Positions 1 through 35,134 of a stretch of 64,000 nt of DNA are shown in pieces. The stretch's first letter is position 1; every line of letters begins with the position of its first letter. The translations under genes were made by a program, and so were the position numbers. Below the pieces are notes generated by a model. The model was not told the origin of the DNA and searched no databases. It saw only the letters and a list, made by a program, of their open reading frames with translations. Source of the DNA: Anaerolineae bacterium (GTDB taxonomy: Bacteria; Chloroflexota; Anaerolineae; Epilineales; Epilineaceae); the NCBI GenBank assembly GCA_034432155.1, contig DAOUCP010000035.1, positions 83,036-147,035 of the forward strand. The letters are read 5' to 3'.

Positions 1-885
1 GGGAATCGATGGCTGCCGCGACCGCCGGCGGGCTGGCAGGCCGGACAGAGGTCCGTGCCGCGACTGTCCAGCAGGCTGGCAGGCCGGACAGAGGTGCGTG
101 CCGCGACCGCCCACCCGAATGCGCACTACCGCCTCGCCGCAGCGCGGACACGGCTGGCCCGTGCGTCGGAAGACATTGAGGGTACCCTGCATCTCGCCTG
201 GATTGCCGGTGAGGTCCCGGAAGCCGCCATCGGCCAGGGTCGTGCCACGAGCCGCCACGGCGCGACGCAGGACGGTGCGAATGGCCCGATGCAGACGAGC
301 TGTCTCATCCGCCGTCAAGCTATCGGCGGTGCGCAGTGGATGCAGCCGAGCGAGCCATAGCGACTCGTCGGCACAGATGTTGCCAATCCCGGCGATCACG
401 GACTGGTTGAGGAGTAGCGATTTCAGCCGGCCGCGCCGCCGCCGCAGGCAGCACTGCAGCCGCTGCCGCGTGAAGTCGGCCGCCAGAGGCTCCGGACCGA
501 GGGGACCAAGCACCGAGGTCGGATCGGCCACCAGGTAGACCCGTCCGAACTTGCGTGGATCGCGAAGCCGCAATTCGGCGCCATCGTCCAGCAGTAGGAT
601 GGTATGGACATGCCGGTCCGCCGGCTGGGCGCCCGGGGCCAGCACCAGGCGGCCACTCATCTTCAGGTGCACCAGCAGCCAGTCATCGTCCAGACGGATG
701 GCCAGGTACTTGCCGCGCCGGCCGAGCTGGCGCACCCGCTGACCACGGATCCGCTCTCCCAGCTCGGCGGGCGTATTCCGCGGTAACTGCGCCGGCCAGT
801 CGCACCAGGCACCACGAAAGATGCGCCCCGCGAGGAGGGGTGCCAGGTCACGGGCGTAGGTTTCGACTTCGGGCAATTCAGGCAC
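1..885 (-). CDS. mutM: Formamidopyrimidine-DNA glycosylase (Fpg/MutM), 3' end truncated by window edge
   Basis: I hand-translated the minus strand from a GTG at 885: VPELPEVETYARDLAPLL...KMSGRLV...C-terminal zinc finger CPRCG...CPACQ. It is open to position 1. It is absent from the ORF track because it runs off the window edge. The N-terminal PELPEVE and the Zn finger are diagnostic of Fpg. Confidence 0.8.
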   Translation of the reverse strand, partial: MPELPEVETYARDLAPLLAGRIFRGAWCDWPAQLPRNTPAELGERIRGQRVRQLGRRGKYLAIRLDDDWLLVHLKMSGRLVLAPGAQPADRHVHTILLLDDGAELRLRDPRKFGRVYLVADPTSVLGPLGPEPLAADFTRQRLQCCLRRRRGRLKSLLLNQSVIAGIGNICADESLWLARLHPLRTADSLTADETARLHRAIRTVLRRAVAARGTTLADGGFRDLTGNPGEMQGTLNVFRRTGQPCPRCGEAVVRIRVGGRGTHLCPACQPAGQSRHGPLSGLPARRRSRQPSIP

Positions 886-1028
886 TTCTGGACTCTCAGG
901 CGATGGCAACAGGGTACGAAGCCGATGGCGACTCGCGTTCCCGATGCCGGCGAATCCTAGGCAGGCGCCGAGAGGCCGCCAAGTCCTGCCGGCAGCCTCA
1001 GCTGCCCGAACGCCCGTTCGCTGATATA

Positions 1029-4000
1029 ATGGCCGCCACCGTCGTCATGGCCAGCTTCACCCACCTCCACGTGCACAGTGAGTACAGCCTGCTCGACGGC
1101 CTCATCCGCCTGCCCGAGTTGGCTCGCGAGGCCAGGCAGGCGGGCTTCCCGGCGTTGGCGTTGACCGATCATGGCGTTATGTATGGCGCAGCGCGCTTTT
1201 ACCACGAGGCACAAGAGGCCGGCATCAAGCCCATCCTTGGCTGCGAGCTGTATGTGGCACGCCGTCTGCGCACCGACCGTCACCCGACCCGCGATCGGCG
1301 GAGCTTCCACCTCACGGTGCTGGCCGAGAACGAGACCGGTTACCGCAACCTGTTGCAGTTGGTCAGTCGCGCCCAGCTCGAGGGCTTCTACTACAAACCC
1401 CGCGTTGATCGCGAGCTCGTGCAGCGGTACGCCGAGGGTCTCGTTGTCCTATCCGGTTGCTTGCAGGGTGAGCTGCCCCAGGCTCTGAAGGACGGCGATG
1501 AGGCAACCGCTCGCCAGACCCTCGCCTGGTATCGAGATGTATTCGGCGATCGCTACTACCTGGAGTTGCAGGACCACAACCTGGACGAGCTAGCAACGGT
1601 CAACCGCGGCCTCTTGGCACTGGCGCGGGAGTTCGAGGTGCCCCTTGTCGCCACCAACGACGTCCACTACCTCCGCGCCACGGACGTGGACGCCCACGAG
1701 GTGCTCATCCAGTTGCAGTGGAAGTCCACAACCCAGGGACGCGAACGGCGCGGCTACGGCCCGACCTATCACCTGCGGTCCGCCGACGAGATGGCGGCCT
1801 TGTTCGGCCACGTGCCGGAAGCGCTGGCGAACACCATGGTCATTGCCGAGCGCTGCAACGTCGATCTGCGCTTTGGGGAGCGCCGGCTGCCCGACTTTCC
1901 GCTGCCCGAGGGTCAAACGGCGGACAGCTATCTGCGACAGCTCTGCGAAGCAGGCGCCATGGAGCGCTACGGCGCGGTCAGCGAGGTCATTCGCGAGCGC
2001 CTGGATCGGGAACTGGCCACCATTGCCGCCATGGGCTTCGCAACCTACTTCCTGATCGTCTGGGACCTTTGTCGGCACGCTCGTGAACGCGGCATTTGGT
2101 ACAACGTGCGCGGCAGCGGCGCCGGGTCCGTCGTCGCCTACGCGTTGCGCATCGCCAATATCGATCCCCTGGCCCACGGACTGATCTTCGAGCGGTTCTT
2201 GAACCCCGCCCGGGTGTCCATGCCCGACATCGATCTCGACCTGGCCGATGATCAGCGCGACGAGCTGATTCGCTACGCCCACGAACGGTACGGCCAGGAT
2301 CATGTCGCTCAGATCATCACCTTCGGCACCCTGGGGGCACGAGCCGCAATCCGAGACGCCGGCCGGGCACTCGAACTGCCGCTCAGTTTGGTGGATCGCA
2401 TCGCCCGTATGATCCCAGCCATCCCGGGCAAGCCATGCTCCCTCGATCAGGTGCTGACGCCGGCGGCGGCCGACGACGAAGACAGCTTCTTCAGCGCCGA
2501 ACTGGCCGAAGCAGTGCATTCGGATCCCGATGTTCGACGCCTGGTGGAGAGCGCCCGCAGCCTCGAAGGCCTGGCGCGCCATGCCTCCACCCACGCTGCC
2601 GGCGTGGTGATCACTGACCGGCCAATCATCGAGTACCTGCCCCTGCACCGCTCCACACACGGCGAGGGGGATCGATCGGGCCTGCCGGTGACCCAGTACG
2701 CCATGAAGGACATCGAGCGCCTGGGCCTGTTGAAGATCGACTTCCTCGGGCTCTCGACCCTCACCGTGCTGCGCCGGGCCGCCGAGCTGGTGGCCGAGCA
2801 CCATGGGGTGTCCATCCGCTTGGAGAGCATACCGTTGGATGACCCGGCCATCTACGAGCTCTTGGGAAGTGGCAACGTGACCGGCGTTTTCCAGGTGGAA
2901 AGCGCGGGCATGCGCCAGATGCTCCGCGAGATGCAGCCGCGAGCCTTCGAGCACGTGACGGCAGCGCTGGCGCTGTACCGTCCCGGGCCGATGCGCTTCA
3001 TTCCCGACTACATCCGCCGCATGCACGGCCAGGAGGAAGTCACGTACCTGCACCCGGCGCTCGTGCCCATCCTTGCGGAAACGTACGGCATTCTCATCTA
3101 CCAGGAGCAAATCATCCGCATCGCCCAGGAGCTGGCCGGCTACGAGCCCGGCAAGGCAGACCTGATCCGCCGCGCGGTCGGCAAGAAGAACCAGGCTGAG
3201 CTACTGAAGCATCATGACGCCTTCGTCGAGGGGGCAACCGAGCGCGGCATCGAGCGCCAGGATGCGGAGCGGATCTTCGAGTTGATCACCAAGTTCGCCC
3301 GTTACGGCTTCAACAAGGCGCACGCCGCCGACTACGCCATGATCGTCTGTCAGACGGCGTGGTTCAAGGCCCGCTACCCGATCGAGTACATGACGGCGCT
3401 CTTGTCCGTGGACCGCCACAATACCGACAAGGTGGCCCTGATTGCCACGGACTGTGCCACCAACGGCATCCGCATCCTGCCGCCAGACGTCAACCAGAGC
3501 CAGCTGGACTTTACTGTTGAGGCACTTCCCCACGATGGCTCCGCTGAGCCGCGCCGGGCAATCCGCTTTGGCCTGGGGGCCATCAAGAACGTAGGCGACG
3601 CCGGCGCGCAAGCCATCCTCGCCGGTCGTGGCGACAGGCCGTTCGCCAATCTTGACGACCTCTGCCGCCGCGTCGATCTCCGCGCCATCGGCAAGCGCGC
3701 CCTGGAGCCGCTCGTACGGGCTGGCGCGCTTGACTGCCTTGGCAGTCGCGACGGCATTCTGGAGCTCTTGGACCGCATCATCAGCCTAAGTGACACCTAC
3801 CATCACGCCAGCGCGGTGGGTCAGATGTCCCTGTTTGGCGATGAGATCGCGCCGGCACTCCCCTCGTTGCTCCCCGAGATCACAAAAGGCCCGGGCGATG
3901 TTCGCCAGCACCTGCAGTGGGAAAAGGAGCTCACCGGGCTCTACCTCTCCGACCATCCCCTCCATCGGGTGGCGGCTGCCCTGCCGCAGGACGTCACGGT

Positions 4001-4619
4001 GTTCCTCGGCGACATCGAACGCAGTCTCGCAGGGACGGTGGTCACCTTCGCTGGCATGGTCACGGCGGTTCGGACACTCACCACCAAGCGCGGCGATCTT
4101 ATGGCCTTCGTCGTTGTCGAGGACCTGAACGGCAGCGTCGAGCTGACGGTCTTTCCGCGCGTCTACGAGGCCACCAAGGACCTCTGGCGACCAGACGTCC
4201 TCGTCCTGGTGCGCGGCAAGGTCGAACCACGAGAGGACCGCCTCCAGGTGGTGGTGGCCAGTGCCCAGTCCTACGCGCCGGATTCGCTCGCCGAGGTGGA
4301 GGAACCCGGCGCCAGCCAGTCGGCTGAGCCAGCCCAACGACCGCTAGGGCAGTACCGTCTTTCCGTCACTGTGCCTCGAACGGCGGACGATTCCCAGGAC
4401 CTGTCCCGTCTCGAGGAGATCTTCCGCCTGCTCACCAGCTTTCGGGGCCAAGACCGCTTCGCCCTGGTGGTCCCACGGGCCGAGGGCATGGTCGAGCTGG
4501 AATTCCCGAACGCCTCGACGCGCTACTGCGTCGCCCTGGTCCAGGAGCTGCAGCGCCTCGTGGGGGCAGGCGCCGTGCAGGTCACCCACGTCGCACACGG
4601 AAGGGAGAACGGTCCATGA
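1029..4619 (+). CDS. dnaE: DNA polymerase III alpha subunit
   Basis: The track ORF 555..4619 contains, from the in-frame ATG at 1029, MAATVVMASFTHLHVHSEYSLLDG. This covers the PHP domain, the polymerase core and a C-terminal OB fold. The likely true start is the second ATG at 1047 (MASFTHLHVHSEYS), downstream of a TGnTATAAT at 1022-1030. The stop overlaps the next gene (ATGA). Confidence 0.95.
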   Translation: MAATVVMASFTHLHVHSEYSLLDGLIRLPELAREARQAGFPALALTDHGVMYGAARFYHEAQEAGIKPILGCELYVARRLRTDRHPTRDRRSFHLTVLAENETGYRNLLQLVSRAQLEGFYYKPRVDRELVQRYAEGLVVLSGCLQGELPQALKDGDEATARQTLAWYRDVFGDRYYLELQDHNLDELATVNRGLLALAREFEVPLVATNDVHYLRATDVDAHEVLIQLQWKSTTQGRERRGYGPTYHLRSADEMAALFGHVPEALANTMVIAERCNVDLRFGERRLPDFPLPEGQTADSYLRQLCEAGAMERYGAVSEVIRERLDRELATIAAMGFATYFLIVWDLCRHARERGIWYNVRGSGAGSVVAYALRIANIDPLAHGLIFERFLNPARVSMPDIDLDLADDQRDELIRYAHERYGQDHVAQIITFGTLGARAAIRDAGRALELPLSLVDRIARMIPAIPGKPCSLDQVLTPAAADDEDSFFSAELAEAVHSDPDVRRLVESARSLEGLARHASTHAAGVVITDRPIIEYLPLHRSTHGEGDRSGLPVTQYAMKDIERLGLLKIDFLGLSTLTVLRRAAELVAEHHGVSIRLESIPLDDPAIYELLGSGNVTGVFQVESAGMRQMLREMQPRAFEHVTAALALYRPGPMRFIPDYIRRMHGQEEVTYLHPALVPILAETYGILIYQEQIIRIAQELAGYEPGKADLIRRAVGKKNQAELLKHHDAFVEGATERGIERQDAERIFELITKFARYGFNKAHAADYAMIVCQTAWFKARYPIEYMTALLSVDRHNTDKVALIATDCATNGIRILPPDVNQSQLDFTVEALPHDGSAEPRRAIRFGLGAIKNVGDAGAQAILAGRGDRPFANLDDLCRRVDLRAIGKRALEPLVRAGALDCLGSRDGILELLDRIISLSDTYHHASAVGQMSLFGDEIAPALPSLLPEITKGPGDVRQHLQWEKELTGLYLSDHPLHRVAAALPQDVTVFLGDIERSLAGTVVTFAGMVTAVRTLTTKRGDLMAFVVVEDLNGSVELTVFPRVYEATKDLWRPDVLVLVRGKVEPREDRLQVVVASAQSYAPDSLAEVEEPGASQSAEPAQRPLGQYRLSVTVPRTADDSQDLSRLEEIFRLLTSFRGQDRFALVVPRAEGMVELEFPNASTRYCVALVQELQRLVGAGAVQVTHVAHGRENGP

Positions 4620-7600
4620 TCCTCCATCGCCGTCTGCTCATCGTTGTCCCGCTTGCGCTGGCCACCCTCGGGCCGTCTTTGGCCGCGGGCAAGCCATCTC
4701 GAGCCGTCGCCCGGGCCCTCGACCCATCCCTGGCCGCGGGCAAGCCATCTCGAGCCGTCGCCCAGGCCCTCGACCCATCCCTGGCCGCAGGCGAGGCATC
4801 CCGGGCCATCGCCCAGGCCCTCGACCCATCGCTAGCGACGCATCCAGCCTGGCTGCTTGCCGAAGAGCCGCTGCCGGTGGTGGTTGCCTTGCGCGGGGAA
4901 ACGGCCTTCGACCGCTATCAGCGCGCACAGGAAGCCACGCCCGGCATCACCACGGCGCGAGAGCAAGCGCGAGCACGCGACGAGGCCTTCGACGCGCTGG
5001 CCGCTCTGCAGGCGCCGGCCCGAGAGGCCATTGTCGAGACAGGGGCCACCATTGTGAGCACCTACGATGCCGCCATGAACGGCTTCCTCGTCTGGGCGAT
5101 ACGGCGCCAGGTTCTGGCCATGGCCGCCGCACCAGGCGTCGAGCGCATCTACCGGGCGCCGGAACATGTTCCGGCACTGGCCAACGCCGTGCCCCTCGTG
5201 GGTGGCGAAGCAGCCCGGGAGCAGCTTCACCTGAGCGGCAAGGACGTCACCATCGCCATCGTCGACACCGGCATCGACTACACCCACTTGTCCCTGGGCG
5301 GCAGCGGCCGGGCTCGGGATTTCCAGGAGAACAACCCACGCACCGTGGAACCGCGCTCGTTCCCCACCGAGAAGGTCATCGGTGGCTACGACTTCGCCGG
5401 TACTTACTACGTGGGCGGCAACATGCCTACCGCCGACGCCGATCCACTGGACGAGAACGGCCACGGCAGCCACGTGGCGGGCATCGCCGCTGGCATGACC
5501 GGCAACCCTAAGGTCTTTCACGGCATGGCCCCCGACGCCAAGCTCATCGCCCTCAAGGTCTTCGGCGCCCGGGGCGGCACCAACCTGGTCATCGATGCCG
5601 TGGAATGGGCCATCGAGGCCAACATGGGCCGCCGCATCAAAGGCATTTGCCAGATGCCCGACGGCGGCGACTGTCGTGTTGACGTACTGAACATGAGCCT
5701 GGGGGCCGCCTTCGCCTCGGACGTTCTGGAGCAGCAAGGCGTGATGCGCCGGGCGCTTGAGGCAGGCATCGTGGTCATCGCCGCCGCCGGCAATGACGAG
5801 GACGTGCCCTTCATCACCGGCGCCCCCGGTGCTTCCGACGTCGTGGTCAGCGTGGCCAACACCTACCCCAGCGGCCAGAAGGCTGACGTGGTGCAGGTGA
5901 GCCACGACGGTGTCACCGAGGATCTGGAGGCTCTGGAAGCCGATCGCAGCTTGTCGCGGCCGATGGCCGAAGTTGGCGAGTTGCGGGCGCCCCTCGGTTG
6001 GTTGGGGCGCGGTTGCCAAGGCGATGCGCCAGCCAGTGACGTCGCCGGCAAGATTGCGTTGATTCCGCGTGGCGACTGTTCCTTCCAGGAGAAGCTGGCC
6101 GCCGCCGCGGCCAACGGCGCTTTGGGTGGCCTCATCTTCAACAACGAGCCCGGCGTCCTGGTCATGGGAGCGTCGCCGCCGAACCCCGTCGCCATCCCGG
6201 CCTATTCGATCGGCCAGGCGGACGGCGAGCGACTGCGCGGGCTGATCGAAGCTGGCACCGAGGTCCGCTGCCGCATGGCCGCCAGCCTGAACAAGACGCT
6301 GGACCGCAGCTACTTGACCGACGTCATCAGCCCATCCAGCAGCCGTGGTCCGAGCCGGATCGGCATTTTGAAGCCCAACTTGAGCGCCCCCGGTACCCAG
6401 ATCGTGGCGCCGTACATCGGTCACGGTGACGAGGGCGTGGCCCTCACCGGCACCTCCATGTCCTCGCCACTGGTCGCTGGCGCGGCAGCCCTGGTGGTCG
6501 AGCGGCTTCGCCAGGATGGCCTGGCGCCGGTGAACCGCCCGCTCAACGACCGAACCAAGCTCACGGCACGGGACGTGGGCGCCATGCTCATGAACTACGC
6601 CGGGGCCACCGTTTGGTGGCGCGACAGCCGGGAGGGGGTGCCGGTGCCGCTAGCCCGGCAGGGAGCGGGCCGCCTCGATGTGCTCTCGGCACTGCGCGGT
6701 CACACCCTTGCTCGTTCCGGCGTCATCGCCGAGATCAACCTTGGTTTCACGGCCGTCGCCGACGCCTGGAGTGGCCGGGCCCCCTTCACCGTGCGCAACC
6801 TGGGTCCGACCGCCAGGCGGTACGCCCTGGGCACGCAGTTCCTGACGACCGAGGAGTCGCAGGCTGGAGTCGAGTACGAGATCGAACCGCAGAGTCTGAC
6901 CGTCGAGCCCGGCCAGGAGCTCGAAGCGAGCCTCCAAGCCTTCGTCGATGCCGGTGCGCTGCGGCCGTACGGCGGCTATGGTGGTGCCAGCTGCCTCAGC
7001 ACCCGCAGCCTGTCCGACACCGAGGTGGATGCCTTCGTCACCATCAACGAAGTCGACGGGCAGGGCCAACCGGTCCCCGGCGGCGACCACCTGCGTCTGC
7101 CCATCTACCTTGTTCCTCGTCCTGCCTCGGACCTGCGCCTGTCGCCGGATCCGGTCTATGTCAGCCCTGCCCTGGGCCAGACGCAGGTGAGCATCGCCAA
7201 CAGCGGTGCGGCGAGCGGTGAGGCAGCGCTCTTTTCGGCCCTGGCGACCGATCCGGTGGAGCAAAACGTCGATCGGCGCATCAACATCGATCTGCTTGCG
7301 GTGCGCCGCGGCAAGGACAGTCGCGGTCAGGGGGTGGTGGAGTTCCTGGTGCATACCGCCGGTGCCCAGGCGGTGCCGCTGGACAGCCAGACGCACATCT
7401 TCGTCGACACCAATCTCGACGGCGAGCTCGATCACGCCATCTTCACCCAAATCGCCCGCAGTGGCCAACAGTACGTCGTGTTCAGTGCTACCAGTCCCGT
7501 CCAGCGACAGCAGCCGATCACGCTGCAGCGCACCATCGCCATGGACTACTACGCCAACGTCGATCTGCAGTCGCGCATCCTCGGCCTGCCGGTCCGGGCG

Positions 7601-22987: not shown

Positions 22988-23892
22988 CTCGACAGCTCGA
23001 CGTCGCGGTGGCCATTGTGAGCTTCGAGACGGCACCGCTGCTCGAGCGGTGCTTGCGCTCCTTGCACGAGGGTGGCTTGGACGGCCTGGCCGCCGGAGTG
23101 TGGGTTTTCGACAACGCCTCGCAAGACGGCAGCGTTGCCGTGGTGCAGCGAGAGTTCCCCGACGTGCACCTCCTGATGAGCGACCGCAATCTCGGCTATG
23201 CCGCAGCGAACAACCAACTGCTGCGCGATGCGGGCTTTGCCGCCGGCGGCAGCGCCCTCGCCCGGCACGCGCTGCTGCTCAACCCCGACACCGTCGTGCC
23301 GCCGGGCGCCATTGCAGAGCTGGTGGCCTTTCTGGAAGCCGAGCCGGATATCGGCGTGGTCGGCCCCAAGCTGGTGCGCGCCGACGGTTCGCTGGACCTG
23401 GCTTGCCGCCGCAGCTTCCCCACTCCGGCCGTGTCCCTCTACCGCTTCGCGGGCCTGTCGCGCCTGTTTCCTGGAAGTCGACGGTTCGGCCGGTACAATC
23501 TGACCTACTTGGACCCAGACCTGCCCGTGGACGTGGACGCTGTGGTCGGTGCTTGCATGCTGGTCCGAGGTACGGCCATCGAGCAGGTCGGCCTGCTGGA
23601 CGAGCGCTTCTGGATGTACGGCGAAGATCTTGATTGGGCGTTCCGGATCCGCCAGGCCGGCTGGCGGGTGGTGTATCGCCCGCAGGTGACGATCCAACAC
23701 GTCAAGCGCGCTGCCGCGGCGCGAAGCTCGCGGGCCAGCTATGAGTTCACGCGTGCGATGTGGTTGTTCTATCAGAAGCACTATGCTCGCACTACGAGCC
23801 GGCCCATCCATTGGCTGATCGTGCTGGCCCTCGCCTTGCGTGGGGGTCGGCGGCTGATCGCCGAGATGCGTGCTGCCCGGAGTGGTCCGTGA
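22984..23892 (+). CDS. Glycosyltransferase family 2
   Basis: VAIVSFETAPLLERCL...VFDNASQDGS...NLGYAAANN fits the GT-A fold. The GTG start overlaps the selB stop (GTGA). The stop overlaps the next start (GTGA). Confidence 0.75.
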   Translation: MTRQLDVAVAIVSFETAPLLERCLRSLHEGGLDGLAAGVWVFDNASQDGSVAVVQREFPDVHLLMSDRNLGYAAANNQLLRDAGFAAGGSALARHALLLNPDTVVPPGAIAELVAFLEAEPDIGVVGPKLVRADGSLDLACRRSFPTPAVSLYRFAGLSRLFPGSRRFGRYNLTYLDPDLPVDVDAVVGACMLVRGTAIEQVGLLDERFWMYGEDLDWAFRIRQAGWRVVYRPQVTIQHVKRAAAARSSRASYEFTRAMWLFYQKHYARTTSRPIHWLIVLALALRGGRRLIAEMRAARSGP

Positions 23893-25319
23893 AGCGTGAT
23901 GCCCGTTGTCGCCGCCTTTGGCTGGAGCGACTGTCGCAGCTGGCGCTCGACCTCCTTGGCTTCGCCCTGGGCATTTGGCTGGCCTACGCGGTGTACCTCC
24001 GGACGGTGGTGCAGGATGCGACCGCGCCCCCCAGCGGCTTTGGGGAGTACGGCGTCGAAGTGGGACTCGGCTACCTGGTGCTGGTGCAAGTTCTCACCCT
24101 CTCGGTGGTGTTCTTCAGCGCCCGGCTTTACCACCAGCCGCGAGGAGTGTCGCGGGTGGATCTGGCGGCGCACATCCTGCGGGCCGTGTCGATTGGGATT
24201 CTCCTATCCATGGCCGTGATCAGCCTGGTGTTGCCCAGACTGGAGGTCTCGCGTCGCATCCTGGTCTACGACTGGCTTCTCACCTTCGCTCTGGTCCTCG
24301 GGCTGCGTCTTGTTCACCGGTCGGTATGGAGCAGCATTCGAAAGCGCGGCATTGGTTGCGACCGCGTGCTGGTGGTCGGAGCCGGTACCGAGGCGCAGGA
24401 CCTGCTGACGCGTATCCAGGCCCGGCCCGCCTTGGGCTACCAGGTGGTGGGCGTGGTGGCCGATGTGCCACGCTTGTCCCGCGTCCGCGGCGTGCCGATC
24501 GTCGGCCGCACGAGCCAGCTCGCGGACCTGGTCGAGCGCCTGGCGGTGGATGAGGTTCTGATTGCCCTGCCGGAGCCGTCGCGGCAACAGCTGCTGGAAC
24601 TTACGAGCCAGTGTTCGCGCGAAGGTCTGTCCGTCCGCATCTATCCCGACGTGTTTCAGATCCTCGCCAGCGAGCTGCGCATGGGGCACCTGGATGGCTT
24701 GCCGCTATTAACGATGCACGACGTGGCACTCAGCGGCTGGCGTCGATCGTTGAAGCGCTTGATCGACATCGCCTTCAGCGGCACCGCCCTAGTGCTGCTC
24801 TCGCCGCTCATGCTCCTCGTCGCCATCCTGGTGAAACTGGACTCGCCGGGCCCGGCCTTCTACGTGCAGGAACGCATGGGGCTGGACGCGCGCCCCTTTC
24901 CGATGCTGAAGTTCCGCACCATGCGGGCCGATGCCGAGCGGGATTCGGGCGCCGTCTGGGCGGTACGCGAGGATCCGCGGCGCACCCGCATTGGCCGCTG
25001 GTTGCGGCGAACGAGCATCGACGAACTGCCGCAGCTCATCAACGTGCTCCTCGGTCACATGAGCGTAGTCGGGCCGCGCCCCGAACGGCCCGAGTTCGTG
25101 CGCGAGTTCCAGCGTCAGATCCCGCGTTACATGGAGCGGCATCGCGAGAAGTCAGGCATCACCGGCTGGGCGCAGGTGAACGGGCTGCGGGGCAGCACTT
25201 CAATTGCTGAACGCACGAAATATGACCTATACTACGTTGAGAACTGGTCCCTTCTGTTTGACTTTCGCATCATGGCACTGACAGTCCTCCAGTTCTTCCG
25301 CGATCCCAACGCTTACTGA
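23889..25319 (+). CDS. Polyprenyl (undecaprenyl)-phosphate glycosylphosphotransferase, WbaP/WcaJ type (exopolysaccharide priming enzyme)
   Basis: N-terminal TM helices. C-terminal bacterial sugar transferase domain LKRLIDIAFSGTALVLLSPLMLLVAILVKLDSPGPAFYVQERMG...IDELPQLINVLLGHMSVVGPRPERP. In-frame GTG at 23889 overlaps the GT2 stop. Confidence 0.8.
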   Translation: MKRDARCRRLWLERLSQLALDLLGFALGIWLAYAVYLRTVVQDATAPPSGFGEYGVEVGLGYLVLVQVLTLSVVFFSARLYHQPRGVSRVDLAAHILRAVSIGILLSMAVISLVLPRLEVSRRILVYDWLLTFALVLGLRLVHRSVWSSIRKRGIGCDRVLVVGAGTEAQDLLTRIQARPALGYQVVGVVADVPRLSRVRGVPIVGRTSQLADLVERLAVDEVLIALPEPSRQQLLELTSQCSREGLSVRIYPDVFQILASELRMGHLDGLPLLTMHDVALSGWRRSLKRLIDIAFSGTALVLLSPLMLLVAILVKLDSPGPAFYVQERMGLDARPFPMLKFRTMRADAERDSGAVWAVREDPRRTRIGRWLRRTSIDELPQLINVLLGHMSVVGPRPERPEFVREFQRQIPRYMERHREKSGITGWAQVNGLRGSTSIAERTKYDLYYVENWSLLFDFRIMALTVLQFFRDPNAY

Positions 25320-25364
25320 CGTCTGACAAGGGCCGAACGCAGGCGGCGAGAGACCGTCGCTGTG

Positions 25365-25544
25365 GACGCCGGGCGGAGAGGAATCGCCGGTCTCGACGCC
25401 GGACGGACGGGAATCCCCGCTGTCGACGGCGGCCCGCGAGGGAGCGCAGGGGTTGACGCCGGACGGACAGGAATCCCTGGTGTCGACGGCCGGCAGAGAG
25501 GCAGCGCGGGTGTTGACGGCGGGCGAAGAGGAAGCTAGGATTAG
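25365..25544. repeat. 6 x 30-nt tandem array (two alternating unit subtypes) between the sugar-transferase stop and hrcA
   Basis: Unit starts fall at 25365, 25395, 25425, 25455, 25485 and 25515. One forward frame (GTG 25362 to TAG 25536-25538) reads a clean decapeptide repeat DAGRxGIxxV / DGGxRGSAGV. Confidence 0.65.
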
Positions 25545-25607
25545 TGCGCCGGCCGCGGCGCTTCGCCGGCGGCGAGCACCAGCCGAGGAGGCTGAGCGCC
25601 GACGACG

Positions 25608-26690
25608 GTGCCATGGGCCGCGGCCCGACGGGGAACGATGATTGCAGGCCCTCCGCCTTCGCGCGAGCTGACCGAGCGGCAAACCCGCATCCTCATGCTG
25701 GTGGTGCAAGAGCACATTCGGACCGGCCAGCCAGTGCCGTCTGCCGCTCTGGCCCGGCGTAGCGACGTTGCCGTAAGCCCGGCTACCGTCCGCGCCGAGA
25801 TGGCAGCGTTGGAGGAGCTGGGGTTGCTCACCCATCCCCATACCTCCGCCGGCCGGGTACCGACCGTTGCCGGGTATCGGTACTTCGCCGAGCACCTGCT
25901 CCGGCGGGGCACCCTGTCGGCCCAGGAACGGCGGGCCATTCGGGCCCGCTTTCTGGCCGCCGGCTGGGACCCGGAGCGCTGGATGCAGATCGCCGCGGAT
26001 ATGATCTCTCAGCTCTCGGGAGTGGCGGGGCTAGCCGCCGCTTTGCCCAGTATTGGCGCAGCGCTACGGCGCCTCGAGTTGGTGGACCTAGGCGGTGGCG
26101 TGGTGCAGATCGTCGTCGTCCTCGACGACGGACAGGTGCGTCAGGTGCGCTGGTGCCCGCAGCACGAATATGACCAGGAGCTCCTCGACCGGTTCAGTCG
26201 GCGGGTCAACGAGCACGTGGCCGGCTTCGCCCAGACCGATTGGACCGGGGCCGGGTGGACAACGCCTTTCCAGGAGGAGGCTGCCCTTGCCATTCGAGAG
26301 CTGGTGAGCAGCCCCCGTCGCCGTGCCGTCCGCCCACCGCGGCTGTACCACTCGGGGTTGGCGCGCATTGTCGAGGAGCCCGAGTTGGCGGTGAGCGGCC
26401 AGCTGCGCCACGTGGTCTCCGTCCTGGAGCATGGCGAGGGGCTGGACATCTTGGTGACCAGGCTGCGCCTTCAGGGTGCCCACGTCTTCATCGGCGGCGA
26501 GCCGCCACTGGAGGAGTGGCCCCCCATTACGCTCATCCTGTCGCGCTTCGGAGGTCGAACCCGTCAGGATGGGCTCGTGGGTGTGGTGGGCCCAACGCGG
26601 CTGCCCTACGAGCGTGCCGTGCCGGCGGTCGAATACGTGGCCGAACTGATGACCCATTTGCTGGCCGGCCAACCGGTCATGCCGGCGTGA
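25608..26690 (+). CDS. hrcA: Heat-inducible transcription repressor HrcA
   Basis: N-terminal winged HTH LTERQTRILMLVVQEHIRTGQPVPSAALARRSDVAVSPATVRAEMAALEELGLL. The C-terminal domain is typical of HrcA. An alternative start is the ATG at 25638. Confidence 0.85.
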   Translation: MPWAAARRGTMIAGPPPSRELTERQTRILMLVVQEHIRTGQPVPSAALARRSDVAVSPATVRAEMAALEELGLLTHPHTSAGRVPTVAGYRYFAEHLLRRGTLSAQERRAIRARFLAAGWDPERWMQIAADMISQLSGVAGLAAALPSIGAALRRLELVDLGGGVVQIVVVLDDGQVRQVRWCPQHEYDQELLDRFSRRVNEHVAGFAQTDWTGAGWTTPFQEEAALAIRELVSSPRRRAVRPPRLYHSGLARIVEEPELAVSGQLRHVVSVLEHGEGLDILVTRLRLQGAHVFIGGEPPLEEWPPITLILSRFGGRTRQDGLVGVVGPTRLPYERAVPAVEYVAELMTHLLAGQPVMPA

Positions 26691-26735
26691 CGTTGCGGCG
26701 GGCCCGCGCTCTCGCATCTGCAGACGAAGCAGCCG

Positions 26736-27851
26736 ATGAAACGCGACTACTACGAGGTGCTGGGCGTCGACCGCAGGGCCACCAGCGACGAGATTCGCCA
26801 GGCCTACCGGCGCCTGGCCCGGCAGCATCATCCGGACGTCCGGGGGAACGAACCGGGGGCCGAGGCGCGCTTCAAGGAGATCAACGAGGCCTACGAGGTG
26901 CTGCGTGATCCCGAACGACGAGCCCTGTACGATCGGTATGGCCACGCCGGCTTGGACTCCCGCACGGCTGCCGACGCCGGCTATCCGTTCAGCGATCTGG
27001 GGGACATCTTCGACCAGCTGTTCGGTTTCGGGTCGCGACCGCGCCCTCGGAGCCGACCTGCCGTCGAGCGCGGTCAGGATCGGCGCGTCCGACTGCGACT
27101 GGATTTGCCCGAGGCGGGCTTCGGAGTCACGCGGACGATCGAGGTGGATCGCTTCGAGCGCTGCGAAGCGTGCGGCGGCACGGGTGCCGAACCGGGTAGC
27201 GGCTCGGTGATCTGCAGCACATGTCAAGGTCAGGGTGAGATCCGCCGCGCCCAGGAGGTGCTCTTCGGCAGATTCGTTACATCCCAGACCTGCCCCCAGT
27301 GCCGCGGCGAGGGCCAGGTGATCGGCACGCCCTGCGCCACTTGCCGAGGGGATGGCCGGATCCTGAAGCGTCGCCGCCTGGAGGTGGACATTCCGCCCGG
27401 CATTGAGGACGGCATGCAGATTCGGTTGACCGGCGAGGGCGACGCGGGGCTGCGGGGTGGTCCGCATGGCGACCTGTTTGTGGTCGTCGAGGTCGCACCC
27501 CACCCCTTGTTCGAGCGGCAGGGCGGTGATTTGCACCTCGTGGTGCGCATCAATCCCGCCGAGGCGGCACTGGGCAGCGCCATCGAGGTGCCAACGTTGG
27601 ACGGTGCCACCACGCTGGTCGTTCCTGCCGGCACGCAGACCGGCGACACGGTGGTCGTGGAGGGCAAGGGAGTGCACCGTTTGGGCAGCGAGCGGCGCGG
27701 TAACCTGGTGGTCACCGTCCAGGTCATCACGCCCACCAAGCTCAGCCGCGAGGAGCGCCGCCTCTTCGAGCAGTTGCGGCTGAGCCTGCCGTCGGCCCAG
27801 GTGGTCGACCGTCGGAGTGTGTGGGAGCGCGTTCGCGAGCGGCTGGGGTGA
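26736..27851 (+). CDS. dnaJ: Chaperone DnaJ
   Basis: J domain MKRDYYEVLGVDRRATSDEIRQAYRRLARQHHPDV. G/F region. Four CxxCxGxG zinc-finger repeats (CEACGGTG, CSTCQGQG, CPQCRGEG, CATCRGDG). Confidence 0.95.
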   Translation: MKRDYYEVLGVDRRATSDEIRQAYRRLARQHHPDVRGNEPGAEARFKEINEAYEVLRDPERRALYDRYGHAGLDSRTAADAGYPFSDLGDIFDQLFGFGSRPRPRSRPAVERGQDRRVRLRLDLPEAGFGVTRTIEVDRFERCEACGGTGAEPGSGSVICSTCQGQGEIRRAQEVLFGRFVTSQTCPQCRGEGQVIGTPCATCRGDGRILKRRRLEVDIPPGIEDGMQIRLTGEGDAGLRGGPHGDLFVVVEVAPHPLFERQGGDLHLVVRINPAEAALGSAIEVPTLDGATTLVVPAGTQTGDTVVVEGKGVHRLGSERRGNLVVTVQVITPTKLSREERRLFEQLRLSLPSAQVVDRRSVWERVRERLG

Positions 27852-28747
27852 GTGAGTCGGCCGGCACCCTCATCGAGCTGAGCGTCGAAGTCGACGGCGA
27901 GGCCGCGGAGGCGGTGGCCGAGCTGTTCGAGCGCTACGGTGGTGGCGCCGTCGTGCACACCGAGGTCACCGCAGGGCCCGACGATGGCGCCAACCTGGCG
28001 GTGCCGATTACCCACGTCCGAACGTACCTCCCAGCCGACGACGTCGAAGCGCGCGCCCGACTCGAGCTCGGCTTGTGGTATCTCGGCCGGCTCCGGCCTA
28101 TTCCCGAAGCCACCATCCGTCAGCTGTCGCCGACCGACTGGGCCGAGGCCTGGAAGGAGCGCTACGTGCCGCAACGAATCGGTCGGCACTGCCTGGTGGT
28201 GCCTTCTTGGTGCCACGTCGAGCCGGCGCCGAGCGATCGCGTCATCGTGCTGGACCCGGGCATGTGCTTCGGAACCGGCCTGCACCCGACCACGCGACTC
28301 TGCCTGGCCTCGTTGGAGGACCTGGTCCGGCCTGGCGACCACGTTTTGGACGTGGGCACAGGGAGCGGCATTCTGGCGATTGCGGCAGCCAAGATGGGTG
28401 CTGGCCATGTGGTGGCTCTGGACATCCAGCGCGAGGCGGTGGACACCGCGAGGGCCAATGCGCAGCGCAACGGCATCGAGCTTGCGACATTCGTGGGCGA
28501 GACCTGGGAGTTGCCAGCGCAGGTGTTCGATGTCCTGGCCGCCAACTTACTGGCCGGGACCATTGTCACCCTGGCCCCCGAGTTCGCTCGTCGGCTGGTG
28601 CCAGGAGGCCGACTCGTGGCCTCCGGCATCCTCGTTGACCAAGGCCCACAGGTCGCCGAGGCCTTGCGCGCCGCCGGCTTTCGCATTGCGGCTGAGCCTT
28701 GCAGCGGGGACTGGCTGGCCCTGGTGGCGGTGAGGCCCGAAAGCTGA
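27821..28747 (+). CDS. prmA: Ribosomal protein L11 methyltransferase
   Basis: SAM-binding VLDVGTGSGILAIAAAKMGA. The PrmA N-domain is present. The start is either the ATG at 27821 or the GTG at 27848, which overlaps the dnaJ stop. Confidence 0.85.
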   Translation: MGARSRAAGVSESAGTLIELSVEVDGEAAEAVAELFERYGGGAVVHTEVTAGPDDGANLAVPITHVRTYLPADDVEARARLELGLWYLGRLRPIPEATIRQLSPTDWAEAWKERYVPQRIGRHCLVVPSWCHVEPAPSDRVIVLDPGMCFGTGLHPTTRLCLASLEDLVRPGDHVLDVGTGSGILAIAAAKMGAGHVVALDIQREAVDTARANAQRNGIELATFVGETWELPAQVFDVLAANLLAGTIVTLAPEFARRLVPGGRLVASGILVDQGPQVAEALRAAGFRIAAEPCSGDWLALVAVRPES

Positions 28748-28761
28748 ACACGCCGTCGCTG

Positions 28762-29481
28762 GTGCCGCGCCTGTTTGTGCCGGCGGGCAGCATCGTCGGC
28801 GGGAGACTCACACTGCGCGGGACGGACGCGGCTCGGGCCGTGGCGCGCGGAGTGCAGCCCGAAGGCGAACTAATAGCTTTGGACAACTCGGGTTGGGAGA
28901 CCGTTGTCCGCGTGGAGGGCTGCAGCGCCGACCTGTGCACCGGCGTCGTCTCCGGGCGTCGCCTTTCGCCCGAGCCGCGCACCAAGATCAGCCTGTACCA
29001 TGCGCTCCTCCATCCAGCCGACTACCGCCGGCTCATCATCGAGGGCACGGCACTCGGCGTGGTGGCGTTTGTGCCGCTCGTCTCGGATCGCTGTGAACTA
29101 CGCCGCCTGGACTATGGGGTCACGGCGGAGCCCGCGAACCACTGGACGGTTGTCGCTCGTGACGCGGCGGAGATTCACGGTCGCGGTCGCTGCCCCGTAC
29201 TGGCGCCGCCGATGCTCTACGATCAGGCGTTGGATGCCTGCCAGGTGAGCAGCCTGGCGTTGCTCCTATGCCCCGGCGGAAAGCCGCTGGCCAAGACCCT
29301 CGAAGGACGCCCCTTCTCGGTGGACGTCCTCTGTCCGCCGCCCAGCGGCTTCTCGGAGGCTGAGGTACGACGTGCCCAGAGCCGCGGTCTGGTGCTCACC
29401 GACTGGCCACGTGCCGGCATCGATCCGGTGGCGCCTGGCCTGGCGGTGGTGCGGGCCATCCTGTCGCTGACGGAAAGTTGA
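28762..29481 (+). CDS. rsmE: 16S rRNA (uracil1498-N3)-methyltransferase RsmE
   Basis: In-frame GTG at 28762 gives VPRLFVPAGSIVGGRLTLRG.., matching the RsmE N-terminus. A SPOUT C-domain is present. The gene order dnaJ-prmA-rsmE is conserved. Confidence 0.8.
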   Translation: MPRLFVPAGSIVGGRLTLRGTDAARAVARGVQPEGELIALDNSGWETVVRVEGCSADLCTGVVSGRRLSPEPRTKISLYHALLHPADYRRLIIEGTALGVVAFVPLVSDRCELRRLDYGVTAEPANHWTVVARDAAEIHGRGRCPVLAPPMLYDQALDACQVSSLALLLCPGGKPLAKTLEGRPFSVDVLCPPPSGFSEAEVRRAQSRGLVLTDWPRAGIDPVAPGLAVVRAILSLTES

Positions 29482-30909: not shown

Positions 30910-33348
30910 ATGCTTGCGCCACGAAGGGGGAGCGCGAAGGAACGGGAGAGACTCCCGTGGCTGTGGCGCGGAGGCGCGGTGACGCTCGTGGTTGCCGCCT
31001 TCTTGGCCCGGTCCTACCGGCTGGATACCCAGAGTCTCTGGTACGACGAGGGCCTTAGCGTCGCGCTCGCGGGGCGCAGTCTGGTCACCATCGCCCGCAA
31101 CGCTGCTGCCGACATCCATCCGCCGCTGTACTATGTCGCGCTGGCCGGGTGGACGCGCTTCGTTGGCTCGAGCGCCTTCGCCGCCCGCTTTCTGTCCGTC
31201 GTCGCCGGCACCTGTCTGGTGGCGCTGACCTGCGCCCTTGGCCGTCGCCTATGGTCCCCTGTCGTAGCTCTGGGCGCGTGCTTGCTGGCCGCCATCTCAC
31301 CGTACCTGATCTGGTACAGCCAGGAAGCCCGGATGTACATGCTGGTCGCCACCCTGGGGGCCGCGGCCCTGTGGCTGAGCCTGGATCTCCTGGCCGCTCC
31401 GGCGTCCGCGAGCCGAGGGCACGGCAGTCGCTGGTTGGCCCTCCTCGCCCTAGAGACCGCCAGTTTGTACAGCCACTACCTGGTCGGAGCGAGCGTCGCC
31501 GCCGCCCTGAACGTCACGGCGCTGCTCGCGATCCGAGCCGGGAACTCCGGCCGCCAAGCGGGATGGTGCCGGCCCGAGACCCGGCTTGCCCGTCGGACGC
31601 CAAGGGGGTGGCGGCCCGACACGCTGCTCGCCCCACGGACGCCAAGGCGGTGGCGCCTCGACACCCTGCTCGCCCCCCAGACGGCGCGCCGGGGGCACAT
31701 TCGCGCGGCCGCCGACGCGGAGCCATCGGAGGGCGCTCTTGTGGCTCGGACGGCCTGGCTCCGGCGCTGGCTCGGGGTGCAACTGGCAGCCTTCCTATTG
31801 TTCGCGCCTTGGCTGTGGTGGGCCTGGCCGACGCTGGCCCAGTGGCCAGCCACCAGCTCGCCCTTCGGCATCCGCTATGCCCTGGCCGAAGCCTTGCGGG
31901 TGTTCTCCCTCGGCGCGCGACGCCCGGACCAGGCCGCTGCCTGGACCTGGCTTTGGGCGGCAACCGCGGCCCTGGGACTTGTCAGCCCTGGGCGCCGCGG
32001 CCAGCGCCTCGGGCCGTGCCTGGCACTCACCTGGGCGATCCTGCCGCCCCTGGGCCTGTGGCTGGCGGGGCTCTCGCGGCCAGCCTGGGAGGCCAAGCAA
32101 CTCATCGCTGGCGCGCTCGGCTTCGAGCTGCTCGCGGCAGCCGGCGCCGTCCATTTGGCTCGCTTGGCCGGCGGCGGTCTGGGCGTTGGAGCCCCACGGA
32201 ACCTTGCCGCGGCGCCGGCCGCGCTCGACAGGGCCCTGCGCTCGGCGGTGGTCGGCGGTGTGCTCCTGGCTGCTCTCGGGTTGCCCCGGCTCGCAAGCCT
32301 GCTTGCCACGTGGCACGACCCACGGCTGCAACGGGACGACTACCGGGGCATTGCGCAGACGGTGGCGCAATGGGCAGGCCCCGGCGATGCAGTGCTGCTC
32401 AATGCACCGACGCAGATTGAGATCTTCGAGTACTACGATCGCCGCGCCCATCCCACCTACCCGCTGCCTCGCTCGCGGCCGCCCGACCGAACCGCGACCG
32501 AGCTCGAACTGGGCGCCATCGCCAGGCGGCACCGGGACTTGTTCGCCGTGTTGTGGGCGACCGAGCAGAGCGACCCGGATGGTATCGTGGAGCACTGGCT
32601 CAACCGCCAGCGCTACAAGGTCTTCGATCGCTGGTTCGGCAACGTGCGGTTGGCGCTGTGGGCCGAGGCGCGCCAGCCACTCCGACCTCGGGCGCTCGGC
32701 GCGGGCGTCGATTTTGGCGGCCAGCTGTGTCTGCGCCGGCTGGCACACTCGCCGCTCCGTGTGCCACGGGGCGAGATCCTCACTCTCGACGCGTGGTGGC
32801 AGGCGCTTCGCCAACCTGAGGCTGACTACGTCGTCTTCGTGCAGCTCCTGGATGCCTCGGGGCGTCTGGCCGCGCAGCGGGACATGCCCCCTGGCGGTGG
32901 ATCGGAACGGACCTCCCGCTGGCTCGCCCACGCGCCGGCGACGCCGTCAGCCACCGCCGGCGACGCAAGCACATGCGGGCTGGCGACTACCGCCGGCACC
33001 CGCGAGGCAGCCGCCGGCGGGAAAGCGACTGCCACCGCCGCCCGCGAGGGAACCGCAAGCCCGATCGCGACTGCCACCGCCGCCCGCGAGGCAACGGCCA
33101 GTGGAACTGCGACCGCCGTCGCTGTGCATGATGCTGGGGCCAGCCAGGAGGCGACGGCTGTCACCCGCGGCTGGCACCTGGACCGAATCGGCCTTCGGCT
33201 GCCGCCGGACCTGGCACCCGGACGCTACACCCTCATCCTGGGGCTTTACCATCCGACCACGCGCCAGCGCCTGGCGCCGGACTCGGCGGCCACCCGGTCG
33301 CCCGGTGCGCCGGATGCGCTGACCATCGGCAGCGTCATCGTGCCATGA
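30910..33348 (+). CDS. Polytopic membrane glycosyltransferase, GT39/GT83 (PMT_2 / ArnT-like, protein O-mannosyltransferase family)
   Basis: Loop-1 motif SLWYDEGLSVALA...DIHPPLYY. Many TM helices. Large C-terminal soluble domain. Inserted 2 x 42-nt repeat and Ala/Thr-rich low-complexity stretch. Confidence 0.75.
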   Translation: MLAPRRGSAKERERLPWLWRGGAVTLVVAAFLARSYRLDTQSLWYDEGLSVALAGRSLVTIARNAAADIHPPLYYVALAGWTRFVGSSAFAARFLSVVAGTCLVALTCALGRRLWSPVVALGACLLAAISPYLIWYSQEARMYMLVATLGAAALWLSLDLLAAPASASRGHGSRWLALLALETASLYSHYLVGASVAAALNVTALLAIRAGNSGRQAGWCRPETRLARRTPRGWRPDTLLAPRTPRRWRLDTLLAPQTARRGHIRAAADAEPSEGALVARTAWLRRWLGVQLAAFLLFAPWLWWAWPTLAQWPATSSPFGIRYALAEALRVFSLGARRPDQAAAWTWLWAATAALGLVSPGRRGQRLGPCLALTWAILPPLGLWLAGLSRPAWEAKQLIAGALGFELLAAAGAVHLARLAGGGLGVGAPRNLAAAPAALDRALRSAVVGGVLLAALGLPRLASLLATWHDPRLQRDDYRGIAQTVAQWAGPGDAVLLNAPTQIEIFEYYDRRAHPTYPLPRSRPPDRTATELELGAIARRHRDLFAVLWATEQSDPDGIVEHWLNRQRYKVFDRWFGNVRLALWAEARQPLRPRALGAGVDFGGQLCLRRLAHSPLRVPRGEILTLDAWWQALRQPEADYVVFVQLLDASGRLAAQRDMPPGGGSERTSRWLAHAPATPSATAGDASTCGLATTAGTREAAAGGKATATAAREGTASPIATATAAREATASGTATAVAVHDAGASQEATAVTRGWHLDRIGLRLPPDLAPGRYTLILGLYHPTTRQRLAPDSAATRSPGAPDALTIGSVIVP
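31594..31677 (+). repeat. 2 x 42-nt in-frame tandem repeat (RTPRGWRPDTLLAP / RTPRRWRLDTLLAP) inside the GT39-like gene
   Basis: Direct repeat read in the sequence. Confidence 0.6.
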
Positions 33349-34184: not shown

Positions 34185-35134
34185 ACCAGGGCACAACACC
34201 CTCACGGAAGCGAATGGGCGTTCCATCGCCTGAGCAGCGCTCGCGGCCCGAGGGGCCCCCGCGAGCCATCCGCGCCATGGCAGGTACGAAGGACCGGCGC
34301 TCCAGTCCGCCCGCCGGGGCGGGCAGACCCGAACGGAGAAGCAGCAAGGACCGACGCTCCGGTCCGCCCGCCGGTGCGGGCAGACCCGAACGGAGAAGCA
34401 GCAAGGACCGACGCTCGGGTCCGCCCGCCGGGGCGGGAAGACTCGCACGCGGAGGCGGCAAGGAGCGCCGGTCGGGCCCGCCAGTCGGCACGGGCAAGCC
34501 CCGACGAGCGCCTCAGGAACGCACCGGCGCTGGGTCCGTCCGCCAGCCGCCGCCGCAGCGCGCCCCACGACGCGGCCCGGCATCGCGATCCGAGGGCCAA
34601 GCCGACTTCCCAAGACCCGGCCACCGGCGGTCATCCCCGGCAGCCGGGTCGCAGCGGTCGCGCTGGCAAGCTTCCCCCGCTCCGACCGCCGAAGCGTCGC
34701 CAAGCGCGGAGCCAGGCGCACCGCCCACTGCGCCGGCGCGTGAGGACCTTCTTTCCGGTCTTACCCTGTTGGGATCGCCCACCACGGGCCCGACGCGGCA
34801 GCTGGAGACCTTCGCCAACCTCCACCCCGAACGGCCGTATGTCGTCACCCTGAGCTGTCCGGAGTTCACTTGTCTATGCCCGGCCACCGGTCAGCCTGAC
34901 TTCGCGCGACTGACCATTCGCTACGTGCCCAACGAGCGCATCCTGGAGAGCAAGTCCTTGCGCCTCTACCTTTGGTCATTCCGCAACGAAGGCCACTTTC
35001 ACGAGCACGTCACCAACCGCATCTTGGACGACCTCGTGGCCGCCCTCGCGCCCCGATCGTGCGAGGTCATCGGGCGCTTCCATGTCCGCGGCGGCATCGC
35101 CATCACCGTGGAAGCCCGCTACCCAAGCCCGTAG
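34181..35134 (+). CDS. queF: NADPH-dependent 7-cyano-7-deazaguanine reductase QueF (type I) with an about 190-aa low-complexity N-terminal extension; the true start may be internal
   Basis: C-terminal 130 aa is LETFANLHPERPYVVTLSCPEFTCLCPATGQPDFARLTIRYVPNERILESKSLRLYLWSFRNEGHFHEHVTNRILDDL...GGIAITVEARY. It carries the catalytic Cys and the QueF motif E(S/L)K(S/A)hK(L/Y)(Y/F/W), here ESKSLRLYLW. The ATG at 34181 overlaps the yhhQ stop. No ATG or GTG lies between 34181 and the QueF core. Confidence 0.7.
   Translation: MNQGTTPSRKRMGVPSPEQRSRPEGPPRAIRAMAGTKDRRSSPPAGAGRPERRSSKDRRSGPPAGAGRPERRSSKDRRSGPPAGAGRLARGGGKERRSGPPVGTGKPRRAPQERTGAGSVRQPPPQRAPRRGPASRSEGQADFPRPGHRRSSPAAGSQRSRWQASPAPTAEASPSAEPGAPPTAPAREDLLSGLTLLGSPTTGPTRQLETFANLHPERPYVVTLSCPEFTCLCPATGQPDFARLTIRYVPNERILESKSLRLYLWSFRNEGHFHEHVTNRILDDLVAALAPRSCEVIGRFHVRGGIAITVEARYPSP
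34270..34440 (+). repeat. About 3 x 57-nt in-frame tandem repeat (19-aa unit PERRSSKDRRSGPPAGAGR) within the queF 5' extension
   Basis: Units at 34327-34383 and 34384-34440 are near-identical; a partial copy lies upstream. Confidence 0.7.

Follow-up and report, generated by a model that had tools for sequence, protein, structure and literature searches.

Contig DAOUCP010000035.1 of the Anaerolineae bacterium assembly GCA_034432155.1 carries, upstream of the heat-shock repressor gene hrcA, an array of short tandem repeats whose origin and possible function are considered here. The window, by which is meant the whole 64,000-nt stretch that was analysed (positions 83,036-147,035 of the contig, forward strand), has a base composition of 68% GC, and the array lies in the 318-nt spacer that separates the stop codon of a sugar-transferase gene from the hrcA ATG. 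The upstream open reading frame (ORF), encoding a polyprenyl-phosphate sugar transferase (Pfam Bac_transf, 1e-69; CoA_binding_3, 1.6e-22), occupies 23760-25319 on the plus strand; its true start is probably near 23890, and it ends with a TGA at 25317-25319. Downstream, hrcA (25638-26690, plus strand; Pfam HrcA, 1.1e-29) encodes a protein of 350 amino acids (aa); a database entry of the same length matches it at 100% identity, and this fixes the start codon. It is the first gene of an hrcA-dnaJ-prmA-rsmE block (25638-29481) in which neighbouring genes abut or overlap and hrcA is not separated from dnaJ by grpE-dnaK; the Pfam-annotated L003 locus described below has the identical order.

Orthologous hrcA loci for comparison were taken from public assemblies. 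L003 (assembly GCA_900174595.1) shares 79% HrcA identity with the window and is fully syntenic (selB - glycosyltransferase - sugar transferase - hrcA - dnaJ - prmA - rsmE), L005 shares 70%, and L001, L002 and L007 share 52-55% and are labelled Anaerolineales or Anaerolineae where the organism is named. The C-terminal end of the sugar transferase (...FFRDPNAY*) is conserved in L003, where the orthologue is 476 aa long, and also in L005, L001 and L002.

Anatomy of the tandem array

The array is made up of six head-to-tail 30-nt units with the consensus TGTCGACGCCGGGCGGAGAGGAAGCGCCGG, which follow one another without gaps from 25361 to 25540. A repeat search recovered six in-register copies at exactly 30-nt spacing, and Tandem Repeats Finder reported both a period of 30 (25361-25533; 5.8 copies, 67% matches, 0% indels) and a period of 60 (25395-25533; 2.3 copies, 82% matches, no indels). 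The match fraction across the array is 0.67 at a lag of 30 nt and 0.75 at a lag of 60 nt; when all 180-nt segments of the 64 kb were scored at their best lag, the median was 0.39 and the 99th percentile 0.59, and the segments that equalled or exceeded the hrcA array all belong to other tandem arrays. With head-to-tail units in the 10-100-nt range, no spacers between them and a periodicity beyond chance, the array is a minisatellite. The period and the number of units had been correctly described in the original prediction, which was made from the sequence alone; the register begins at 25361 and not, as stated there, at 25365.

The units have diverged considerably from one another. Only 13 of the 30 columns are invariant, pairwise identity among the six units is 60-80%, and the units fall into two subtypes in the order A A B A B B. 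Identity is 24/30 between units 2 and 4 and again between units 3 and 5, whereas the neighbouring units 2 and 3, or 4 and 5, agree at only 18-19/30, a pattern that fits duplication of a 60-nt dimer, such that units 2-3 and units 4-5 are taken to be the two copies. The alternation of subtypes that had been proposed for the array is therefore strict in units 2-5 only, although the 60-nt higher-order structure that went with it is real. A further, degenerate unit (‘unit 0’) precedes the array at 25331-25360: it matches the six units at 14-18/30 positions (mean 15.8), compared with 8.6 ± 2.0 for random 30-mers (p = 0.0007), and it was also picked up by the repeat search as a 63% copy. Because unit 0 extends the array to 25331, repeats fill nearly the whole span from the upstream stop codon to the -10 hexamer of the promoter described next.

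The predicted hrcA promoter and the last repeat unit

A promoter scan predicted, on the plus strand, a -35 hexamer TTGACG at 25513-25518, corresponding to positions 3-8 of the last repeat unit, and a -10 hexamer TAGGAT at 25536-25541, which comes directly after the array and includes the TAG that ends the 58-aa ORF considered below. In a consensus scan this TTGACG-17-TAGGAT combination (25513-25541) was the sole sigma-70-like site in the interval 25000-26000, where shuffled sequences lead to an expectation of 0.0, and the same criteria returned just nine sites on both strands of the 64 kb. Apart from TAGGAT, the intergenic region contains no TANNNT at all. The promoter call draws most of its support from conservation as a footprint across six loci, since a TTGACN-17-TAnnnT architecture stands ahead of hrcA in all five orthologous Chloroflexota loci, none of which has the array. 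The hexamers are TTGACA/TAACAT in L003, TTGACC/TACCAT in L005, L007 and L001, and TTGACG/TACCGT in L002; the -35 and -10 are separated by 17 nt in every case, and the distance from the -35 to the ATG is 125 nt in the window, 123 nt in L003 and 107 nt in L005. The promoters of the relatives were anchored by their hexamers, as the intergenic regions of the window, L003 and L005 proved unalignable with MAFFT outside their coding ends.

The position of the predicted promoter implies a transcription start site (TSS) near 25547-25550, and hence a GC-rich hrcA 5' untranslated region (UTR) of ~90 nt, which would span 25547-25637 on the plus strand. Because the conserved promoter puts its -35 inside the last unit, the array would lie upstream of the hrcA transcript and not within its leader. 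A -35-like hexamer is found in every unit of the array (TGGACG once, TCGACG three times and TTGACG twice), but only in the last unit is it followed 17 nt downstream by a TANNNT; the corresponding places in the upstream units read GCCGGT, CCCGCT, GCAGGG, CCTGGT and GCGGGT.

Two features of the predicted leader may be recorded here, namely a GCGCCG-GCCG-CGGCGC hairpin (25546-25561) and a GAGGAGG Shine-Dalgarno-like motif at 25585-25591, 47 nt ahead of the hrcA ATG. The next strong promoter-like site, TTGACA-18-TATAAT (12/12), is at 29478, ahead of the gene that follows the hrcA block.

Absence of the array from related genomes

The array is absent from L003, L005, L001, L002 and L007, loci in which either the sugar-transferase/hrcA synteny or the promoter has been retained, and no repeat with a period of at least 15 nt occurs at its place in these relatives apart from an unrelated 21-nt repeat in L007. 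The array is thus a lineage-specific expansion, missing from the orthologous site of related genomes. Its effect on the intergenic region is apparent in the spacing between the -35 and the stop codon upstream of it, which is 193 nt in the window, compared with 108 nt in L003, 36 nt in L005, 92 nt in L001 and 110 nt in L002; the excess in the window is about the length of the extra units. The L007 repeat (540-585; GCGCAGCGAGGCGGGGTGAGG) is a perfect 21-nt repeat of 2.2 copies which ends 4 nt before the L007 hrcA -35, and it therefore represents a second, independent repeat at the same promoter-upstream position.

No further copy of the unit was found in the 64-kb window or in eight related loci, either with an nhmmer profile of the six units run with all filters off or with short-word blastn. 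It had been suggested that other copies of the 30-mer be sought, and on this result the unit is not a dispersed element of the repetitive extragenic palindromic (REP), MITE (miniature inverted-repeat transposable element) or mycobacterial interspersed repetitive unit (MIRU) type. Genome, metagenome and protein collections held no relative closer than 79% HrcA identity, and exact-protein look-ups with DnaJ and with both HrcA start variants, which sought other strains, returned nothing on record. The proposal that the array is a variable-number repeat is borne out in so far as it is a genuine minisatellite that is absent from all of the orthologous loci, including those with 79% and 70% HrcA identity; at 60-80% identity, however, its units are a poor substrate for slippage today.

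Other minisatellites in the window

The hrcA array is one of seven unrelated minisatellites in the 64 kb, which corresponds to ~1 per 9 kb; their periods range from 30 to 57 nt and are multiples of three in six of the seven. Two of the others appear intergenic, at 14-111 (period 43 nt, upstream of dnaE) and at 34289-34504 (period 57 nt). One lies in the N-terminal part of a subtilase ORF (4680-4830, period 51 nt), one in or before a second subtilase (53404-53509, period 45 nt), and two, both with a period of 42 nt, are in frame in a PMT_2 gene (31565-31683 and 32983-33117). Copy identity in these six arrays is 76-93%, and the hrcA array, at 67%, is the most decayed. No minisatellite was found in the 21-kb syntenic L003 locus or in the 13-kb L001 locus. 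Taken together, these counts suggest a propensity for tandem duplication that is specific to the lineage, and the range of copy identities suggests that a mutational process is still under way in it, with the hrcA array as an old product.

The consequences for coding sequence can be seen in the PMT_2 glycosyltransferase (30910-33348), which is 812 aa long in the window and 728 aa long in L003. The gaps in the alignment of the two proteins (at approximately residues 214-260 and 690-752) fall at the in-frame arrays, which indicates that tandem duplication has lengthened loops of this protein. With regard to dnaE (DNA polymerase III alpha; ORF 555-4619), the PHP domain begins only at residue 170, so that the start has been listed too far upstream or else the protein is extended at its N-terminus.

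Apparent loss of the CIRCE operator

The operator of the HrcA regulon is the controlling inverted repeat of chaperone expression (CIRCE), TTAGCACTC-N9-GAGTGCTAA, and such an element would be expected here, between the promoter and the gene; CIRCE is a 9-nt inverted repeat, whereas the array is composed of direct repeats. The absence of a canonical CIRCE, as reported in the original prediction, was confirmed, with no match in the window at up to three mismatches and also none at up to five, although it is not peculiar to this genome. A CIRCE is present between the same promoter and hrcA in L001 (TTATCACTC-N9-GAGTGCCAG, three mismatches, 5955-5981) and in L007 (CTAGCACTC-N9-GACTGCTAA, two mismatches, 663-689), but the same scan found none at up to five mismatches in L003, L005 or L002, all three of which have kept the promoter and do not have the array. 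As three relatives without the array are also without the operator, the missing CIRCE is a property of part of the clade and is unrelated to the array. To judge from these leader sequences, part of the clade seems to have lost hrcA autoregulation via CIRCE.

The sequence that had been put forward as a degenerate CIRCE half-site, TTAGTGCGC, is indeed present (25541-25549, plus strand) but is not a CIRCE: by hand count it matches the left half-site at 6/9 positions, and the place where the right half-site would be expected matches at 2/9. It starts with the last T of the -10 hexamer, and L001 likewise has TTAG straight after its -10 (TACCAT, then TAGG) in addition to a separate, real CIRCE further downstream. 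When the three CIRCE-less leaders were compared by eye for a shared operator, the only common word was a GAGCACC heptamer in the window and L003, which was judged to be due to chance.

Origin of the array and its possible role in transcription

The array is likely to be a lineage-specific, decayed minisatellite that arose when the -35/spacer segment of the hrcA promoter was tandemly duplicated and that is now neutral or nearly so, the last copy alone being active. The process would have begun with a promoter piece of ~30 nt, comprising the -35 hexamer and the 17-nt spacer, being tandemly duplicated through replication slippage or unequal recombination. A later duplication of the 60-nt dimer, from units 2-3 to units 4-5, would have given rise to the higher-order pattern, and point mutations would then have eroded the copies to their present 60-80% identity. 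Since the promoter-proximal unit alone still has a -10, it would serve as the sole working promoter of hrcA-dnaJ-prmA-rsmE, and the upstream copies would act as an inert or nearly inert spacer that shifts the sugar-transferase gene ~150-180 nt away from the promoter.

A number of points weigh against this account. Its neutral component is drawn from one genome, the promoter and the TSS are predictions, and the closest available relative, at 79% HrcA identity, limits the view of how old and how variable the array is. In addition, five of the six columns of the -35-like block are invariant, compared with 13/30 overall (hypergeometric p = 0.04), which could hint at selection on the upstream copies, and the ratio of nonsynonymous to synonymous differences (pN/pS) among the units is 0.44 in the frame of the 58-aa ORF, the lowest value of the six frames.

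The alternative that survives best is that the array is a functional promoter tandem repeat, in which the upstream units present sigma region 4 of RNA polymerase with decoy -35 sites, or a regulator with repeated T-N-GACG sites. As a consequence, the dosage of the heat-shock repressor would be adjusted by copy number, along the lines of the promoter tandem repeats of Mycobacterium tuberculosis. The array does abut and include the -35 box, T-N-GACG is invariant in the six units and forms their most conserved six-column block, and in L007 an unrelated repeat ends close to that locus' own hrcA -35; furthermore, promoter repeats of variable copy number that are proposed to affect expression have been documented in M. 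tuberculosis (PMC12817950). Against this, the conservation signal comes from six copies and would fail correction for multiple testing, and the upstream units are without a -10, unlike the M. tuberculosis repeats. At the present unit identity, slippage-driven change in copy number should now be rare. No consistent palindrome was seen on inspection and no match to the units was found elsewhere in the 64 kb, and all of the relatives keep the same promoter without the array. Both the decoy or regulator function and the dosage effect that would follow from it are accordingly judged unlikely.

A broader version of the same idea is more doubtful still. Here the array would be a ‘dosage dial’, in which the amounts of HrcA and DnaJ are governed by conserved, -35-like T-N-GACG boxes of variable copy number, through binding of a regulator or titration of RNA polymerase, in an uncultured Chloroflexota lineage that has lost the usual CIRCE autoregulation of hrcA. 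It would also be one outcome of a minisatellite-forming activity that is unusually high in this genome and that remodels protein loops in frame as well.

The 58-aa open reading frame

It had also been proposed that the array encodes a small repetitive peptide. The ORF in question, which starts with the GTG at 25362 and ends with the TAG at 25536-25538 (25362-25538, plus strand), appears in the ORF listing as described and would specify a 58-aa decapeptide-repeat protein, (VDAGRxGIxG)n, beginning VDAGRRGIAG (VDAGRRGIAGLDAGR...), possibly translated from sugar-transferase read-through transcripts. No terminator is predicted between the sugar-transferase gene and the ORF, and the low pN/pS noted above belongs to this frame. 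Between-unit variation shows no significant 3-nt periodicity, however, in the form of a third-position excess (permutation p = 0.32-0.35). The openness of the frame is expected by chance, because 47-53% of the 58-codon frames taken arbitrarily from the window, with its 68% GC, contain no stop; across the array itself five frames out of six are open, and the T content of the array is only 10%. The same applies to the opposite strand, which had been reported to be open and is so across the array, although not beyond chance.

The composition of the ORF is likewise unlike that of the genes. Its GC content at codon positions 1/2/3 is 0.80/0.71/0.66, compared with ~0.73/0.50/0.80 in genes, and AGA, which genes use 0.8 times per 1000 codons, occurs in it four times (hand count). 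Its codon log-likelihood is -0.32 per codon, compared with 0.34 ± 0.15 (5th percentile 0.11) for in-frame 58-codon windows of genes. This last score was given less weight because the arrays inside the PMT_2 coding sequence also score poorly (-0.20 and 0.06), so that codon usage alone cannot exclude coding. The ORF had no Pfam hit, and a full HMMER scan of 1.84 billion representative proteins gave nine weak matches (E <= 0.001), among which there was no identical or clearly bacterial counterpart of the peptide; the five of the nine that were inspected are unrelated proteins with 10-residue repeats, such as LDGSRKGASG and VDAGQTGEPT. There is no orthologue of the ORF in L003 or L005, which have stops in the corresponding frames, and the TAG that terminates it is no more than the opening triplet of the -10 hexamer. 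As openness beyond chance, native codon usage and conservation or homologues are all lacking, the ORF was judged to be a chance open frame, and a small gene at this position is very improbable.

A second frame, of 62 aa, runs from a TTG at 25453 to a TGA at 25641 that overlaps the hrcA ATG, an arrangement reminiscent of MIRU. It was rejected as a candidate: the same ATGA occurs in L003, which has neither the array nor the ORF, and at the upstream gene this frame is without a start codon. The overlap is probably coincidental.

RNA structure

A further proposal was that the array forms a structured 5' UTR or thermosensor for hrcA. A structured RNA might here belong to a long hrcA leader or, on a co-transcript of the sugar-transferase gene and hrcA, be an intercistronic element. 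The upstream side has no predicted intrinsic terminator, so that read-through could include the array, and its GC-rich sequence folds stably in absolute terms (-84 kcal/mol over the 180 nt of the array). Relative to dinucleotide shuffles, however, the fold energies are within the range of the shuffled sequences, the z-score being -1.69 for the array, -1.40 when the whole spacer is folded and -0.94 for the predicted leader. No Rfam family reached its gathering threshold, and at E <= 10 there were only far sub-threshold matches, the best of which was CcsR1 on the minus strand of the leader (18.9 bits against a cut-off of 65 bits). The array precedes the conserved promoter and its predicted TSS, and the sequence is missing from the relatives. 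When folding was compared across temperatures, as had been suggested for the thermosensor, the predicted unpaired probability of the hrcA start region was 0.59 at 37 C and reached no more than 0.69 at 70 C, the top of the series, so that the ribosome-binding and start region is not sequestered and changes little. The array shows the properties of neither an RNA thermometer nor a structured leader, and a role of this type is, if anything, a shade less probable than the peptide gene.

On inspection, a G-quadruplex (the G-tracts are ~30 nt apart), H-DNA (the polypurine runs are short), a palindromic operator (the palindromes are inconsistent between units) and a pho-box-like reading of the units were also dropped.

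Significance of the array

For hrcA itself the array is of little consequence, since the promoter found in the relatives has been retained and the repeats add no demonstrable function. It does provide a clear case of tandem duplication that can be traced to one promoter segment, consisting of the -35 box and the spacer, with the -10 kept by the last copy, and it illustrates the growth and decay of promoter-proximal DNA in a high-GC bacterium. It also calls for caution over micro-ORFs and thermosensors in GC-rich repeats, given that five of the six frames are open here by composition alone. The more interesting lead lies in the density of minisatellites at the level of the genome and in the in-frame insertions in the glycosyltransferase, none of which occurs in the syntenic relative.

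Comparison with known systems

Repeats at the core promoter, where a change in copy number could alter expression, are a feature that the hrcA array has in common with the promoter contingency loci of Neisseria and Haemophilus. The repeats of contingency loci are perfect, with units of 1-7 nt and high rates of slippage, and are located in or near the -35/-10 spacer; those of the hrcA array, in contrast, are degenerate 30-nt units positioned upstream of, and not within, the -35/-10 spacer.

MIRU constitute, in the account of Supply et al. (1997) as relayed by PMC3184786, a dispersed family of ~40-50 loci with related units of 40-100 bp, which are located within operons and transcribed, and whose ORFs overlap the flanking genes. 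As far as that account goes, the hrcA array resembles them in being an intergenic tandem array with units of tens of bases in a GC-rich genome, absent at the site in related species and open in several frames. It differs from MIRU, as they are portrayed there, in being confined to a single locus, in its 30-nt unit and in lying upstream of a promoter that separates the flanking genes. Assignment to this group is also opposed by the lack of dispersed copies and by the other six arrays in the window, whose units are unrelated.

The closest known kind is that of the promoter tandem repeats of M. tuberculosis, and the hrcA array is best described as an intergenic promoter-proximal minisatellite. 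In M. tuberculosis, tandemly repeated promoter sequences of 54-58 bp are located upstream of dop, lpdA (VNTR3690) and cysG; their units are near-identical, their copy number varies between strains and within cultures, and an effect on expression has been proposed (PMC12817950). Indeed, a strain engineered to carry a second copy of the lpdA repeat made more biofilm (PMC12817950). The hrcA array departs from these repeats in that its units are 30 nt long, contain only the -35 and the spacer, have a -10 in the last copy only and, at 60-80% identity, are not near-identical. What the two have in common is a minisatellite-sized repeat directly upstream of a gene in a high-GC bacterium; the hrcA array would, like the M. 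tuberculosis repeats, consist of promoter sequence for the gene that it precedes, and both presumably arose from slippage or unequal recombination.

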